Shown in pieces: positions 27,001 to 45,000 of a stretch of 64,000 nucleotides of DNA. A program made the position numbers. Each line of letters opens with the position of its first letter. Position 1 is the stretch's first letter. The stretch lies in contig JAKFCY010000002.1 of the NCBI GenBank assembly GCA_036676395.1, positions 2,528,001 through 2,592,000 on the forward strand, written 5' to 3'. The stretch is from Bdellovibrio sp. GTDB lineage: Bacteria > Bdellovibrionota > Bdellovibrionia > Bdellovibrionales > Bdellovibrionaceae.

Positions 27001-30000
27001 TTTCGATGGATCAAGAACAACCTGAACAATACCTTCACGGTCGCGAAGATCGATGAAAATTAGACTTCCGTGGTCACGACGAACGTTAACCCACCCCATC
27101 AAGACAACTTTTTGCCCCACATGGTTGCTGTTTAATTCGCCACAGTAATTCGTTCTTTTTAACTCTCTTACAAATTTCATACTAATCCCGATTTCTACAA
27201 TTTTTTGCGTTTTGCGCGTCTTTTTCTGGTGTTCAAGCCAGTATAGAACAGCTAGAGTATAATAATTGACAAACGCGAGTCAAAACTCATCTTTAATTAG
27301 GAGTGAAATAATATGCCTAAACTGAACTTCGAAATGCCTGCCGCATTAACGGCTGACCAGGCTTTTACTAAGATCCAAACGTTTTTGAACTCGGATAATA
27401 ACTTTAAGAAGTTCGATCCCAAGGTTTCTGCGACTTTTGACCAGTCTAACAAATCATGTCAAATCAACGGTTCCCAATTTAAAGCTGATTTAAAGATCAA
27501 ACCCCAAGCTGATCAGTGTTCGGTGGCTATTGAAGTGGACATCCCGTTTGCATTAACCCTGTTCAAGGGAAAAATTAAAGAAGAAATCGAAAAAGCCTTT
27601 AAAAAGGTATTAACGTAGCGTTCTATGTCTAAGAAAAAAGCCAGCACGAAAAAGGTGTCTGCTAAAAAAGTACCCGCAAAAAAAGTTAGTTCTAAAAAAA
27701 CTGCCGTTAAGTCGGCGGTTAAAAAAGCGATTACAAAATTAAAAGCACCTAAAGATAAAATCAAAAAAGTTCATGCCGTTCTGGTCGAAGATCACCATGA
27801 ACACGATGAACCTATTGATGTTCATGCGCAGGCTGACTTAGACGAAGCCCAAGCGGCTGATGAACTTGAGATTGAACAACCGACTCACCAGTTACCTTCG
27901 ATTGTATCTGATCAAGGTGTACGTTCGCGTGACCCTTTAACCACTTACTTAAATGAAATTCGTAAATATCCGGTGCTGAGCCGCGAAGACGAAATGAAAT
28001 TAGCTAAAAGATATTTTGAAACTAAAGACCCGGAAGCCGCGCAAGCCTTGGTGCGGGCGAATTTACGCTTTGTCGTAAAAATTGCCGCTGAATATGCCCG
28101 TTTTTCTTCGCGCATGATTGATCTTATTCAAGAAGGCAACGTTGGCCTTATGCATGCGGTGAAAGATTATAACCCTTACAAAGGCGCACGTCTTATCACT
28201 TATGCTGTATGGTGGATTCGTGGTTATATTCAAGAGTATTTGATGCGCCAATTTTCAATGGTGCGTATCGGAACAACCGCTAATCAAAGAAAATTATTTT
28301 ATCAATTACAGCGCCAAAAAAACGAACTTGAAAAAATGTCTTCACCAGAAAATATCGCGCAACTTTCGCATAAATTAGGAATCCCTAAAGACGAAGTTGA
28401 AGAAATGGCAAAACGTGTTTCAGGCCGCGATGTCAGTCTTGACAAAACTAGTGATGACGATGGCGGCGGAACATTATCTTTGGGCAGCATTCTAAGTAAA
28501 GAAGATGGCAGCCTGCCACTAGATGAACAGCTGGCTTTAAGCGAGCAACTTAAATTTTTAAAAGACGCGATCGATTCTATTAAAGCTGATTTAAATGAAA
28601 AAGAAAAAATCATCCTTGAAGAACGTGTCTTAAATGAAGAGCCCCTGACTTTACAGGAAATCGGCGAAAAATATCATATTACCCGCGAAGCTGTTCGCCA
28701 GAATGAAGCCCGCCTGATCAATAAAATTAAAACCGCACTTGCCCAGTTAATGAAATAGACCCATACTAAAAGAGCCGATGAGAAATTCTGCTCTTTTTTT
28801 ATTTTTTGCTTTTCTATTCGTGTGTTTGCAACAAGCACAAGCTTATAAAGTTTTAGAAATTCGTAATAATAAAATCTTAGTCGACCTAGAAGGACAGATT
28901 CTAGAACGCGGTGATTATTTAAAAACTCTTCCGAATGCAGAATTTCAAGGCCGCGCTATTGTTATCACTATCCGCCCTGGCCAAGCTATCGGTAAACTTC
29001 AAGATGGTAATTTCACTGTCGGCGAACAAGTCACAAGAATCAAAGCCGATCCAAAGTTTAATGAAGAAGCTATTAAAGTTTCGTTACAATTTAAATATTT
29101 AAACAACGGGATTTCAATCAAACAAAGAGATAACAGCTTTCCAACGCCAAATTCAGAAACCGTCACAATGACCGGTTCTAGTGTTGGTGGCTTTGCGGTT
29201 ATTGACTGGCCCACGGATTGGTTTTTATTGCGCGGTTCATTAGGTGTGGAACCCGTAGAAGTTAAAGGAACAGCAAGATTTAATTCTTGTTTGAGCAAGA
29301 CATCTACAAATTGCACGGTCGACATTAATTATATCGCAGCCTCGGCAGCGATCCGTTATGATTACTACCGCAAAAACCGCCTAGTTACTTGGGTGGCGGC
29401 AGGATCTGGAATTAAATTTCCCTTAAATAAAAGTTCAACATCTTTAAACAAAGGCGCTATCGGTATTGCGAACTCAATTTTAGTAAGTACCGGCGCAGAT
29501 TATTTGATCACTAAAAAATATTTTATTCCGGTCGGAATGGAGTATCACTACTCATTAAATTATTCAGAGAAAGTTCCCGTTATTAGCCAGTTTGCCTTGC
29601 ATGCGGGTATCGGTATGGAATTTTAAATTATTACAGCTAAGGCGTAAGCGTTACATAGGAATGAACTTTACCATATGAATCGACGAAACGAACTACGCCC
29701 GAATCAATAAAATATATTCTTTCGTTGGCGCCCACAAAAGTATCCCATAGATCCAGTTCGCAGGCTGTTTTTCCGGTTCCATTAGCACAAAGTGATGCGA
29801 AGTTCTGAAATCCGCGCCCTACTTGTGTATCCCAAGAGCTGCCATTGTAACGTCGAACATAACCTTCAAGACGATTCATTGAATAAAGATTGCCTGTGCG
29901 CGAGACGAATAAATTATTATTACTGAAATAACTAGGCACTATAAAATTTAGCGCAGCAGCTGGAACGGCCACACCGTCTTCGCCAAATACAGACATAGTC

Positions 30001-42000: not shown

Positions 42001-45000
42001 ATGAAAAAAGTGTGATCGCGACTGTTCCGCCCATTACGAGAATAAGAGCATGCGGATTTAACAACATTGTCGGAGCACTTAAACCGTGAATAATACCAAA
42101 GTAAACGACGGTACAACACGCGATAAGGCCTATAAAAACAGATGAATTCATGAGATTCTCCCCTATGTACATATCGGTTTTTTCTCAATTTAATAAACCG
42201 ACCAAAGTTGGTTATATTGTCGACAATAGGTTTTTTGTTCGCAAAAAGCGGAGTCTCGAAACAGGACGTTGGTACTAGGTTAAATTTTATTTAATAGTAA
42301 TTGTGTTTGATCTGGACCTTTTACTGGCAAATCGGAGCCGCAGGGTCTTTACTGCAAAGATAGGCTTTAATCGCCGCATTTTCTTGTTCTAGGCTTTGAA
42401 TTTTACGATCTTTAACAGCGTTCTCTACTTTAAGATTTTTTATTTCAACTTCGACACCGATCAACTTATGATAAATTTCTTTGATGGCATTTACTGCCGT
42501 CCAAATAATCGAGTCATTAGTGACATGAAAAAAACCTTCAGAATCCTGCGTCACCGCTTCAGGAATAACCTTCAACACATCCTGAGCTTTGATACCCACA
42601 AACTCTTTGCTGGATGGAAGACCAAGAGGATTATCTTGTTTGTAATTAAAATAAACTGTGTTCAAACCATTTAAAGCAGCGATACCACGAGTAAATGGAG
42701 CGCGAATATTTTTAAGACGTTCATCGGAAGCAATTGTCCAAGTGCTTGTTCCAGGTTTTGCCGCAGAATCTGTCGACAATTGTAACTGGTAAGTTGGCGC
42801 AGATACACCGATACCAACATTATTTCCATGAACCACCATTGCCGGAGTCGATACGCCACCACCGTTTGGCGCAAAAGAAATTCTATCCGGCGAAGATTCG
42901 GTATAAAAAATACCAAAATTAGGATCGGCTGTGCTAAAGCGCCAGATAGCGCGTGTGCCGCCGTATAGACCTCCGTAGATATCACCATTAACTTGTACGT
43001 TGCCGCTAACGTGCAATTTTTGTAATGGGGTGCTGGTGCCAATACCAACATCACCATCGTTTTCAAAAGTCATCACTTGGCCTGCACCATAATAAAAATC
43101 TAAAAATGCATCAGCTCCCAGATCACGCGCGTCGATTTTCCATGGACCACCTGTGTGACCATAAGGGTGAATAACCATACGAGTTATGGAGCCGGAAGTT
43201 CCGGCTGCAGCTTCTTGTTTACCAATACCAACATACCCCGAACTGTCGACTCGCATTCTCTCGATAGCACCGGTTGAAAATCTAATTCCACCCGCACTTG
43301 CCGATATATTAATACCGCTGACAATACCGCTATTAGAAAAAAGCGCTAACTGATTTAGCGCTGTCGTACTCGACACGCCACCAAGTAATATGCCCGCAGA
43401 ATTCGAGCCATAAGCTGAGCCGATGTTTGTCATGACAAAACCAGCTCGGGATAAAGTGCCCGAATTATTATTTGTCACATTCACAAAAGTATCTGCATTT
43501 GAATTTTGTTCGATTGATAAAATTGAAGTTGGATTTGATGTGCCGATACCGACATTACCCGTATTTGTAATGCGCATTCTTTCTGGCACGTTACCTGGAG
43601 CTACTGTCGTTTGATTGGTGCCGAATGAAATACCACCCTCATTACCGCTGCCATTAAACTGCAAGTAACCCATCCACGTAGCATCGATTTTTTGCTGAAT
43701 GCGAGACCCCGCAGAAAACCAATTTGTACCCGAAGCTGTTCTAATCTGACGAATATCTAAAAGACCGACATTTCCATTATAAGAATTAAATCTTTGCAGC
43801 TCAACGGTGTCATTTATATTCTGACCTAAATCGCTGCCTTTAACCTCAAATTTTGCAGTTGGCGCAGATGTTCCGATGCCGACATTGCCAGTGCTTGTTA
43901 TACGAAGGCCTTCTGTCAAGGCCGGCGAAAGGGCTTGTCTATACATAAGAGAAAGATATCCCGCCACATCAGATGTTGTGGCATTTTCTTTAGAGCCGCG
44001 AACCGCGCCAAACACCACTGGTGCTGTTCCGGAAGATATGTACCCTCCGAAACCTAGGCCACCACCGACACCAGTCGCGGCACCGGCATTATCTACAACA
44101 AATGAGTTTACCGGATAACTTGCACTATAAAGCGGACCAAGAACATCCAGTCGTGTTACCGGAGCGCTTGTTCCAATTCCAACGTTGCCCCCGTGAGGTT
44201 GTAAAACAAGTTCTGAATCACTGGCGAAAGTTGCAAATGCTGGATCTCGATGACCCGATTGAATCCACGAAGTGCGAGTGTTTGAAAGCTCACTTACACC
44301 GAAATATAAAGCATTACTTCCAGCACCGAAATCCGCTGCCACACGAAAGCCAGATTTATTTATAAAGTTATTTGCATCTGAATTTGTCGCATTCGGAGTT
44401 GACCCAGGATAGTTTACATCTAAACGTGAAATTGCAGCGGTCGTTGCAATACCCAAATTTCCATTGGTATCAACGCGCATTCTTTCGGTGTTACTTGTAC
44501 CGAATAAAATCGGCTGACCTTGAATTGTACCGATAGAAAAACCACCGGCCACATCACTTATAATTGTATTACCATCAGCAAATAATCCATTGCCTGAAGC
44601 TTCTTGCACACGCAGAACTGCGTTATTTAAATCATATGAACCAAAACCCGTTCCTAAAGTTGTACTTTCAAAAACATGTAATTGCGCTGTTGGAATCTGC
44701 CCGATACCTAAGGCACCACTTGCTGTCATACGCATGCGTTCGCCATTGTTTGAATAAAACGATAGCTGTCCGTTCGTAGGACCTGCTGTGCCTGTTGAAA
44801 ATAATCCTGTATCGCCATCTGCACCGAACGCGTAACCCACTGTCGAGTTATCTCCGTTATCCGGAATTCCTTGATTAGCTCTAAAACCAGTACCTTTAAT
44901 AATCGCAGAACCACTGATGATACCACCGACATTCAATGCACCAGCAATACCTGCGCCGCCATTTACAATTAAAGCACCTGTTGAAGAATTTGTTGAAGTC

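Follow-up and report, generated by a model that had tools for sequence, protein, structure and literature searches.

A MotAB-type stator pair linked to an outer-membrane barrel in Bdellovibrio: a probable non-flagellar motor of the cell envelope

AglRQS-Glt is the gliding machinery of Myxococcus and has homologues in Bdellovibrio; in this related bacterial group, a stator-like motor is combined with outer-membrane barrels, lipoproteins and a surface adhesin. In ExbBD-TonB and TolQR-TolA-Pal, a long arm through the periplasm couples the proton-motive force of the inner membrane to a protein of the outer membrane. In known flagellar stators the charged torque helix is the contact to FliG, and binding of MotB to peptidoglycan releases the plug. 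The flagellar stators MotA5B2 and PomAB constitute the "FIT" group of Puente-Lelievre et al. 2025 (PMC12505986), the Agl proteins are of the TolQR type and belong to the "GIT" group (PMC12505986), and Zorya illustrates that MotAB-like 5:2 motors can serve non-motility roles (PMC12505986). GldLM/PorLM of type 9 secretion and gliding in Bacteroidota is an inner-membrane ion motor with a long dimeric periplasmic shaft; this shaft, a part of the B-type subunit, ends in beta-sandwich domains and reaches outer-membrane-associated partners responsible for adhesins and secreted enzymes (general knowledge and PMC13104615). Here, we describe a previously undescribed gene set in predatory Bdellovibrio-type bacteria, which we take, with a probability of about 60%, to encode a non-flagellar, ion-driven trans-envelope motor of the MotA5B2 kind that derives from a flagellar stator paralogue and was rewired to the outer membrane.

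The window, a stretch of 64,000 nucleotides from Bdellovibrio sp. (contig JAKFCY010000002.1, positions 2,528,001 to 2,592,000), contains a stator-centred cassette of seven genes, as the first-pass annotation had reported. Taking the longest ORFs, seven genes abut on the minus strand from 29637 to 42172, with junctions that vary between 14 nt of overlap and a gap of 2 nt. Their products are a stator pair (MotA-like and MotB-like), a pair of lectin-like lipoproteins, two NHL-propeller lipoproteins that are paralogous to each other, and one barrel protein of the outer membrane (OMP):

41312-42172, minus strand: MotA-like channel subunit, 286 aa by longest ORF (PF01618; MotA/PomA alignments)
40188-41309, minus strand: MotB-like subunit, 373 aa (PF13677; AlphaFold model)
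38285-40195, minus strand: lectin-like lipoprotein 1, 636 aa (sub-threshold Lcl_C; lipobox)
36466-38298, minus strand: lectin-like lipoprotein 2, 610 aa (sub-threshold Lcl_C; lipobox)
32957-36481, minus strand: giant NHL-propeller lipoprotein, 1174 aa (TEN_NHL; lipobox)
31680-32966, minus strand: outer-membrane protein (fam-F OMP), 428 aa (structure model; barrel matches)
29637-31679, minus strand: NHL-type lipoprotein, 680 aa (hhalign to the 1174-aa protein; lipobox)

The end coordinate given earlier, 42151, falls on codon 8 of the MotA-like ORF, a Met; this Met8 is the likely start, and the alignment of the orthologue from genome G058 begins there as well. In G058, a genome of the same genus, the order of the cassette is kept at 73-91% identity. 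The earlier Pfam values were reproduced (MotA_ExbB 4.2e-14, MotB_plug 3.6e-14, Lcl_C 2.5e-6, TEN_NHL 8.1e-10, OMP_b-brl 5.1e-3), lipobox-like motifs were found in the same seven proteins as before, and the channel segment SYADMMTLLFGLFV is indeed present in both MotB-like proteins of this genome.

Judged from its sequence, the MotA-like subunit is a full-length flagellar-type MotA, in fold as well as in length. The NCBIfam MotA/PomA models cover it completely, with scores far under the cut-off (103 vs 340 bits), and TolQ scores 15 bits compared to 103 bits for MotA. Solved MotA/PomA chains align with it end to end (E 1e-17 to 4e-13), and the motifs YPPxLGLLGA and FLPL are kept in 14 MotA-likes. 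The torque-helix region, VKNWYNNSWYQN, is variable and not conserved across 14 family members. In a careful maximum-likelihood tree (58 rows, including 14 cassette MotAs and 30 ExbB/TolQ-type proteins; 200 bootstrap trees) the cassette MotAs are recovered as a single clade (100/100), which groups with four flagellar-type MotAs (96/93), well apart from the ExbB/TolQ-type proteins; the flagellar-labelled MotAs were monophyletic in none of the 200 bootstrap trees. The cassette MotAs are nested among the flagellar-type MotAs of the phylum. The MotB partners of these nearest flagellar-type relatives all carry OmpA, as does the MotB of locus L063, unlike the cassette MotB-likes. No FliG-like gene was found near either cassette of this genome, whose two FliG_C matches lie far from both. 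The earlier view that the pair is something other than this genome's flagellar stator is supported.

The MotB-like subunit has MotB_plug as its sole real Pfam match and, like flagellar MotB, a transmembrane helix, the channel aspartate and the plug. No OmpA domain was found in the cassette MotB-likes, in agreement with the earlier description. A disordered cytoplasmic N terminus is followed by the transmembrane helix with Asp75, the plug helix, a helix of 115 residues (125-239), equivalent to about 17 nm, and a beta-sandwich (250-373); in the AlphaFold model the C-terminal domain is predicted with a pLDDT >95. This domain resembles the TerD family (Foldseek E 8e-5; VIA Z 9.1, rmsd 3.9, 122 aligned). 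Going by the model, the OmpA anchor of flagellar MotB is replaced by a long helix, predicted to form a coiled-coil stalk, with a TerD-like head. Asp75 is invariant in 91 MotB-like sequences, and so are W259, D267, D295 and G299-P300-G301 of the C-terminal domain; H264, D265 and E303 are present in at least 90% of them. Across 91 homologues, the aspartate and the head are separated by 138-276 residues (median 188). A profile of the C-terminal domain retrieved 155 clusters at E<=1e-30, and among the best 150 of these nearly all proteins are 270-480 aa long and carry the domain C-terminally.

In a structure model of the OMP (mean pLDDT 85), a signal peptide is followed by two beta-sandwich domains (26-112 and 119-215); after these come a helix (219-236) and a barrel of 10 strands (239-427). 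The barrel matches pOmpT (Z 19.7), OpcA (Z 18.9) and Dot/Icm porin I (Z 17.1); the OMP_b-brl value is under the cut-off. The usual topology of even-stranded barrels defines the side of their N-terminal domains, which would place the beta-sandwich domains in the periplasm and not at the surface. Since a 10-stranded barrel of the size of OmpT or OpcA is too narrow as a translocon for folded proteins, a role in secretion would need another pore. The OMP gene lies near the MotB-like gene in 23 of 28 loci, and the protein accompanies the stator pair across seven families of the phylum. In a sample of 401 genomes of the phylum, it was found in 21 of the 26 genomes that have the MotB-like C-terminal domain and in 0 of the 375 that lack it, counts that overstate the number of independent observations, as kin genomes are not independent; in the other five of the 26 no OMP was detected at E<=1e-8. 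Copy numbers of the MotB-like protein and the OMP match (2 and 2) in G000, G058 and G104. The conserved unit is the trio of MotA-like protein, MotB-like protein and 10-stranded barrel with two N-terminal beta-sandwich domains.

The lipoproteins are less constant. Lectin-like lipoproteins 1 and 2 are paralogues (39% identical). The former combines "YxYxxEYGGR" repeats, rich in Cys, with a C-terminal Lcl_C/DUF1566-like domain (Lcl_C E 0.043, under the 34.9-bit cut-off; lipobox AGTSC), the latter reaches 28.2 bits against the same cut-off (lipobox FSLGC), and its nearest Atlas clusters are all Lcl_C (0.86-0.88), a lead only. The 1174-aa lipoprotein (lipobox TLFSC) has weak matches to teneurin NHL in the PDB, and the 680-aa lipoprotein (TEN_NHL 0.006, sub-threshold; lipobox TVSGC) is homologous over its whole length to the 1174-aa family (hhalign probability 100, E 3e-66). 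All seven gene kinds occur together in 4 of 26 loci outside this genome, and altogether in four gene orders in three genera (the window and L028; cassette 2; L016; L019 and L026). The caveat that outside the genus only the MotAB-like pair is conserved is therefore wrong, because all seven kinds recur, shuffled, in other genera. Five other loci have an alternative module instead, a giant subtilase (Peptidase_S8, E 1e-46 to 3e-31) with two paralogous lipoproteins, all with lipobox-like N termini. The four lipoproteins are thus one of at least two accessory modules, and instead of a seven-gene machine, as proposed before, the locus is better described as a three-gene core with exchangeable giant-lipoprotein modules. 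A machine spanning the envelope, also proposed before, is plausible in view of the 115-residue helix and the co-occurring dedicated barrel, but its action on surface lectins is not supported, as the lectins are no constant partner.

Homologues of all seven kinds are also present in the second set of this genome (C2:1777113-1791608), as stated earlier, but the two sets are not collinear. The second consists of two convergent operons, with the lectin, lectin, big and lipoprotein genes on one strand and the genes for the OMP, an extra 223-aa protein, MotB and MotA on the other. By tblastn against the whole genome, the MotA-like protein is 42.6% identical to its counterpart over 289 aa (7e-62), the MotB-like protein 27.1% over 306 aa (4e-22), the lectin-like lipoproteins 30-46%, the 1174-aa lipoprotein 25.1% over 1301 aa (2e-62), the OMP 24.9% over 366 aa and the 680-aa lipoprotein 25.5% over 639 aa.

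Could the four lipoprotein genes be mere neighbours of a real trio, coding for independent surface or periplasmic proteins in the same variable region? Two further paralogues of the NHL lipoprotein lie away from any stator in this genome, the lectin domain matches are sub-threshold, and the lipobox-ORF heuristic detects no giant lipoprotein in 12 of the 26 loci that belong to other genomes, so that the lipoproteins are not obligatory neighbours. However, simple inheritance of synteny would not preserve the four kinds beside the trio in three genera and four orders; in other lineages the same position is taken by another giant-lipoprotein set, lipobox ORFs of at least 500 aa are about fivefold enriched (26 loci, 1.22 per 20 kb; genome-wide, 0.25 per 20 kb; by a crude heuristic), and the genes in the window abut or overlap as one operon. 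We consider this explanation unlikely. A further one, an alternative stator that drives the single sheathed flagellum and has as its anchor not peptidoglycan but a protein of the outer membrane or the sheath, would agree with the nesting of the MotA-like protein among flagellar-type MotAs and with the single canonical stator pair of this genome. In addition, motAB1 and motAB2 are reportedly missing from epibiotic relatives (PMC11870529), and several stator sets serve one flagellum in Bdellovibrio (PMC13689555). This is nevertheless rather improbable: the charges of the torque helix are not conserved, a family-profile search, not exhaustive for flagellar genes, found none beside any of the 28 loci, there are up to three copies per genome with differing lipoprotein or subtilase modules, and the NCBIfam flagellar equivalog scores are far under the cut-off.

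The arrangement of inner-membrane motor, periplasm-spanning helical arm and outer-membrane partner also follows the logic of ExbBD-TonB and TolQRA-Pal. The motor could then energise the barrel as a gated channel or tether in uptake or envelope maintenance, with lipoproteins (lectins, propellers, proteases) that capture and process prey-derived glycans or peptides for import; the binding or hydrolytic domains of the accessory proteins would suit such nutrient capture. But the barrel has 10 strands, no receptor plug or TonB box was detected and no match to TonB_dep_Rec or Plug families was found at E<=0.1, the MotA-like protein is far from ExbB/TolQ by tree and HMM, the plug is of the MotB type, and the B subunit itself contains the arm, for which TonB/Tol have a third protein; such a function seems quite doubtful. 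The MotAB-like 5:2 architecture of Zorya would allow for a defence against phages or other invaders built on a sensor motor, but this is hardly credible: none of the seven cassette proteins has a PADLOC match, the MotA-like protein has no long cytoplasmic tail, nuclease or helicase partners are absent, and the partners are outer-membrane and lipoprotein genes. From AglRQS-Glt the cassette differs in that no Glt families were detected in it and the four ExbB/TolQ-type genes of this genome lie elsewhere. GldLM is an analogue without sequence relation: no cassette protein matches GldL or GldM families at E<=0.1, and a true MotA serves as the A subunit. At the outer membrane, a small barrel of 10 strands stands in place of the GldKN ring with the SprA translocon, and the cargo candidates are lipoproteins, in which no T9SS C-terminal domains were detected.

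This leads us back to a MotA5B2-type motor that acts on the outer membrane. Two MotB-like chains would pair as a parallel coiled coil, giving a stalk about 17 nm long whose head would dock on the barrel protein's periplasmic domains; the target of the head could, however, also be peptidoglycan or something other than the barrel protein. Docking may free the plug, as peptidoglycan binding does in flagellar MotB, and ion flow would then turn or pull the stalk relative to the MotA ring, so that work reaches the outer membrane much as it does with GldM/PorM, TonB or TolA. Giant lipoproteins encoded beside the trio may be the parts that are acted on or held. With the cell-wall anchor lost, and with a long stalk, a barrel partner of its own and, often, giant lipoproteins, the motor probably drives a process at the cell surface and not a flagellum; the lipoproteins would most likely be adhesins or enzymes, and their display, movement or activation there would serve contact with prey or substrate.

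The seven genes of the cassette are encoded on the minus strand, from 42172 down to 29637 of the window when the longest ORFs are taken, and because neighbouring frames either overlap, by up to 14 nt, or stand at most 2 nt apart, they form one tight operon. Directly upstream, 148 nt apart, is a fibre gene:

42321-48914 of the window, minus strand: MAT (mosaic adhesive trimer) chimeric fibre gene, 2197 aa, 'Bdellovibrio' model (NF053851, 1.6e-46), with a Peptidase_S74 chaperone domain at the C-terminus

Downstream and on the opposite strand follow genes of housekeeping function, one for a sigma-70 family factor and one for aspartyl-tRNA synthetase, so that the cassette has clear ends on both sides. 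A MAT-like gene also precedes the cassette in a second genome of the genus (G058, locus L028); it is not found in more distant loci. Consensus scans of 29300-42500 revealed no excess of promoters (25 versus 31.0 in shuffles) or terminators (11 versus 11.7). In one soil metatranscriptome run (X17), contigs from a relative 90-99% alike covered 26 of the 30 bins into which the cassette was divided. Since DNA carry-over into the library is possible, this is a weak hint of transcription only, and the uncovered bins are uninformative.

The first-pass annotation had placed another copy of each of the seven kinds at C2:1777113-1791608 of the same contig. Whole-genome tblastn bears this out, with the identities given there, and the Pfam values of that annotation were reproduced exactly. 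In cassette 2 the order differs: the four lipoprotein genes lie on one strand, and the genes for the barrel protein, an additional ORF, the MotB-like and the MotA-like protein converge on them from the other. The additional ORF (223 aa; C2:1789275-1789946, minus strand, which is 15275-15946 of the fetched locus L001) lies between the MotB-like and the barrel gene and has a LysM-like motif at its N-terminus, at an E value of 0.041 only. It could be the source of a peptidoglycan contact that the MotB-like protein does not have.

The MotA-like protein aligns over residues 10-269 with the chains of solved MotA/PomA structures (phmmer, E 1e-17 to 4e-13) and has the four transmembrane helices and the expanded cytoplasmic domain of these proteins. 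It covers positions 1-256 of the 259 positions of the NCBIfam MotA model, and its best MotA score stays far below the equivalog cut-off (103.5 versus 340 bits). The TolQ model gives 15 bits (E 0.016). A maximum-likelihood tree was calculated from 58 proteins: 14 cassette MotAs, 14 MotAs of the flagellar type drawn from six genomes of the family, and 30 proteins of the ExbB/TolQ type. In it the cassette MotAs form one clade (support 100/100), which joins four flagellar-type MotAs at 96/93 and is split from all 30 ExbB/TolQ-type proteins by a 100/100 branch; none of 200 bootstrap trees united the flagellar-type label in one clade. Sampling was confined to a single family of the phylum, and the long branch of the MotA of locus L063 is unstable. 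Judged by sequence, then, the MotA-like protein is of the flagellar type, and the TolQ score and the tree speak against an A subunit of the ExbB/TolQ type. The L063 MotA belongs to a different orphan stator cluster (229-2401 of the locus, plus strand; contig C5 of genome G046), in which a TPR/PEGA lipoprotein, MotA and a MotB with an OmpA domain stand in a row.

The channel motifs round the conserved prolines are kept across 14 members of the MotA-like family. The torque-generating helix, which meets FliG in flagellar stators (Arg90 and Glu98 in E. coli numbering), is different. Where solved MotAs show a charged helix with an ARREGxLALE-type sequence, the MotA-like protein has VKNWYNNSWYQN, and across the same 14 members this region is variable and its charged residues are not conserved.

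The partner subunit has a channel aspartate in its transmembrane helix and a plug (PF13677, 3.6e-14). This residue, Asp75, is invariant in 91 sequences, and an AlphaFold model built from the alignment of these sequences gave the following architecture.

Segments of the MotB-like protein in the AlphaFold model (residues)
N-terminus: cytoplasmic, disordered
70-93: transmembrane helix
98-111: plug helix
125-239: long helix of 115 residues, about 17 nm if straight
250-373: beta-sandwich, pLDDT >95

An OmpA-like peptidoglycan-binding domain is absent: neither cassette MotB matches PF00691 at E<=0.1. OmpA is present, at 2e-21 to 9e-8, in all the MotBs that partner the nearest flagellar-type MotAs. 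The best MotB/MotD score of the MotB-like protein is 43.6, against an NCBIfam equivalog cut-off of 283. In none of 91 homologues is the spacer from the channel aspartate to the head short: it measures 138-276 residues, with a median of 188.

In structure the sandwich comes closest to calcium-binding proteins of the TerD family (VIA: Z 9.1 and rmsd 3.9 Å over 122 aligned residues; Foldseek: E 8e-5, TM 0.49). No sequence match to solved TerD was detected, and a profile search of solved structures with the C-domain gave nothing below E 0.39; Pfam searched with the domain alone returned chance-level matches, and no family covers it. W259, D267, D295 and G299-P300-G301 are invariant, H264, D265 and E303 nearly so, and the conserved acidic and histidine residues suggest a putative metal site. 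A resemblance to DUF2135 (PF09906) had an Atlas similarity score of 0.90; as 0 of 15 members match PF09906 in hmmscan, it is kept as a lead. A profile of the C-domain matched 155 clusters at E<=1e-30 among 1.84 billion representatives, and in the best 150 of these the proteins are almost all 270-480 aa long with the domain at the C-terminus.

The third constant component is the 428-aa barrel protein. Behind a signal peptide, its model (mean pLDDT 85) has two beta-sandwich domains, then a helix and finally a closed barrel of 10 antiparallel strands at 239-427, the size of OmpT and OpcA. The barrel matches pOmpT (Z 19.7, rmsd 2.3, 184 aligned) and OpcA (Z 18.9), and also a porin from the Dot/Icm machine of Legionella (Z 17.1). 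The N-terminal half alone gave one chance-level match in Pfam, and hhalign of the barrel-protein family against the lipoprotein and MotB families, a comparison for a shared docking domain, revealed no relation beyond signal peptides. A complex prediction with residues 25-428 of the barrel protein and the MotB-like C-domain scored 0.03 in both runs, which speaks neither for nor against binding.

How constant this set is was seen from a comparison of loci. Matches to the MotB-like protein that include the C-terminal domain were counted in 26 of 151 genomes of the family, in several genera; among these 151, the genus of complete Bdellovibrio-type genomes (g9) had plug-only matches and no C-domain. 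We compared 14 loci from this search and 12 from other families of the phylum. A MotA-family gene adjoins the MotB-like gene in every locus but L029 (25 of 26), and a barrel homologue lies within the fetched stretch in 21, or 23 of 28 with both cassettes of the genome under study. It was not in the fetched stretch of L022, L023, L029, L073 and L076, and in two of these genomes it is on another contig. A word-indexed search with the barrel protein had found only 18 close relatives (>=63% identity), and the diverse alignment was therefore drawn from the fetched loci. Nine of the 21 homologues were detected by BLASTP, two by the family profile only and ten distant ones by profile, the latter outside the training set and at E 1e-8 to 3e-65. 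In a phylum sample of 401 genomes the C-domain profile matched 26, from seven families. The barrel-protein profile matched 21, all among these 26 and in 0 of the 375 others; kin genomes are not independent in these counts, and the pattern spans several families. In L022 (10863-13892, plus strand) and L029 (4907-7948, minus strand), from two genomes of one genus without a barrel gene in the fetched stretch, the gene facing the MotB-like gene encodes an MMPL transporter of about 1010 aa that carries a fused LolA-like domain for lipoprotein sorting (1.7e-30). In L021 the barrel gene and the MotA-like gene are separated by a small Gp49/HigB-like ORF (2282-2683, plus strand; 1e-6).

The lipoproteins vary. 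In the cassette the two NHL lipoproteins are paralogues over the whole length of the shorter one (hhalign probability 100) and the two lectin-like lipoproteins are 39% identical to each other. Bit scores for Lcl_C/DUF1566 (PF07603) in the four lectin-like proteins of both cassettes are 28.2, 20.3, 16.7 and 14.5, against a gathering cut-off of 34.9; the Atlas clusters nearest to the second lectin-like lipoprotein all carry Lcl_C, at 0.86-0.88, which is a lead. The first-pass annotation had cautioned that outside the genus only the MotAB-like pair is conserved; this is refuted, because all seven kinds recur together in two other genera (L019, L026), in addition to L016 (same genus, MotB identity 41%) and L028. 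L028 has the gene order of the window. Each of the other three departs from it both in the order and in the strands of its genes; L019 and L026 have one order in common, with different strand arrangements. Five loci (L027, L071, L074, L078, L080) have instead a subtilase of 1117-1221 aa (Peptidase_S8, 1.5e-46 to 3e-31), accompanied in four of them (not L074) by two mutually related large proteins, and all proteins of this module have lipobox-like N-termini. The comparison thus defines the unit as three core genes to which interchangeable modules of giant lipoproteins are added. Two more paralogues of the giant NHL lipoprotein (27-32% identity) are encoded in the genome with no stator or barrel gene beside them:

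C2:2084587-2087802, minus strand (4587-7802 of locus L002): NHL paralogue
C2:961706-965743, plus strand (3706-7743 of locus L003): NHL paralogue

Ion-driven 5:2 motors power flagella, the TonB/Tol systems, gliding with type 9 secretion and Zorya defence. In the cassette the channel pair is of the flagellar type, with ion path and plug intact and with neither the anchor domain nor a conserved rotor interface; the B subunit is long enough to cross much of the periplasm, and a dedicated barrel protein with N-terminal soluble domains goes with the pair. We take it as probable (roughly 60%) that a flagellar-type pair has been rewired for non-flagellar work delivered at the outer membrane. Two B chains would form a coiled-coil stalk whose head meets the periplasmic domains of the barrel protein; this engagement would open the plug, and ion flow would then turn or pull the stalk relative to the MotA ring. 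Such motion could do work at the outer membrane, as GldLM/PorLM, TonB or TolA do, and the lipoproteins may be the parts displayed, moved or activated there. The likeness to GldLM/PorLM is architectural only, as neither the MotA-like nor the MotB-like protein matches a GldL or GldM Pfam family at E<=0.1. A barrel of 10 strands is too narrow for folded proteins, an argument against a secretion system complete in itself. It is tempting to go further and to see here a previously undescribed, phylum-wide class of trans-envelope machine, in which a stator without rotor interface and anchor has become a barrel-docked drive shaft that powers exchangeable giant surface lipoproteins, lectin and propeller adhesins in this genome and subtilases in others; this we regard as tentative. 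The first-pass observation of two cassettes round a divergent stator is confirmed and extended, and its interpretation, an ion-driven, envelope-spanning machine acting on surface lectins, is supported in part: the channel features hold, an envelope-spanning arrangement is plausible, and the action on surface lectins is not supported as worded, the lectin genes not being the constant partner.

The lipoproteins might also be unrelated neighbours of the core, and 12 of the 26 loci have no lipobox ORF of at least 500 aa. By the same crude heuristic the loci contain 28 such ORFs in 460,789 bases, about five times the density of the whole genome (43 in 3.40 Mb), and with the recurrence of all seven kinds in other genera we consider chance neighbourhood unlikely. 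That the pair is a variant flagellar stator would agree with the place of the MotA-like protein among flagellar-type MotAs. It is rather improbable given the variable torque region, and both FliG_C matches in the genome are far from both cassettes; the second, weak one (27 bits; a 259-aa frame, C2:483758-484066, plus strand) is near neither the canonical FliG nor any MotB-plug gene. The genome holds seven MotA/ExbB-family genes and three MotB-plug genes, those of one canonical pair and of the two cassette pairs. The canonical MotB (C2:418931-419887, plus strand) has a plug and no Pfam OmpA match at E<=0.01; OmpA does occur in the MotBs paired with the other flagellar-type MotAs that were examined. 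A TonB/Tol-like uptake or tether system would likewise act on an outer-membrane partner, and with an A subunit outside the ExbB/TolQ type it is just as improbable. Zorya-like defence, which also uses a 5:2 motor, is hardly credible: none of the seven proteins matches a PADLOC family at E<=0.01, and the long tail of ZorA is absent from the MotA-like protein of 286 aa.

According to Puente-Lelievre et al. (2025, PMC12505986), flagellar stators are one group by four features (torque interface, square fold, plug and linker, OmpA-like anchor), and non-flagellar relatives are without a plug. Measured against that account, the cassette family agrees in A subunit and plug and departs in anchor and torque residues. 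With its tie to a barrel protein it is a natural counter-example to the grouping: a flagellar-type stator put to other use and, in function, not a member of the flagellar stator family. According to a preprint on this bacterial family (PMC11870529), epibiotic predators are devoid of motAB1 and motAB2 and keep motAB3, which the single canonical pair of the genome under study fits. We found no description of the cassette family in the literature, the supplements of PMC12505986 (379 stator homologues, which could include a member) being outside the search.

The finding is a previously undescribed, phylum-wide variant of the 5:2 motor theme and shows how a stator can be re-purposed. If the reading as a trans-envelope machine is true, this would be the first known stator of the flagellar rather than the Exb/Tol type exapted for outer-membrane work. 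The gliding motor and the adhesins of Bdellovibrionota are named as an open problem in a 2026 review (PMC13104615). The three core genes, Asp75 and the lipoproteins make concrete candidates, and the cassette could, if the reading holds, be the missing link between motor and adhesin for surface movement or prey attachment in this phylum.
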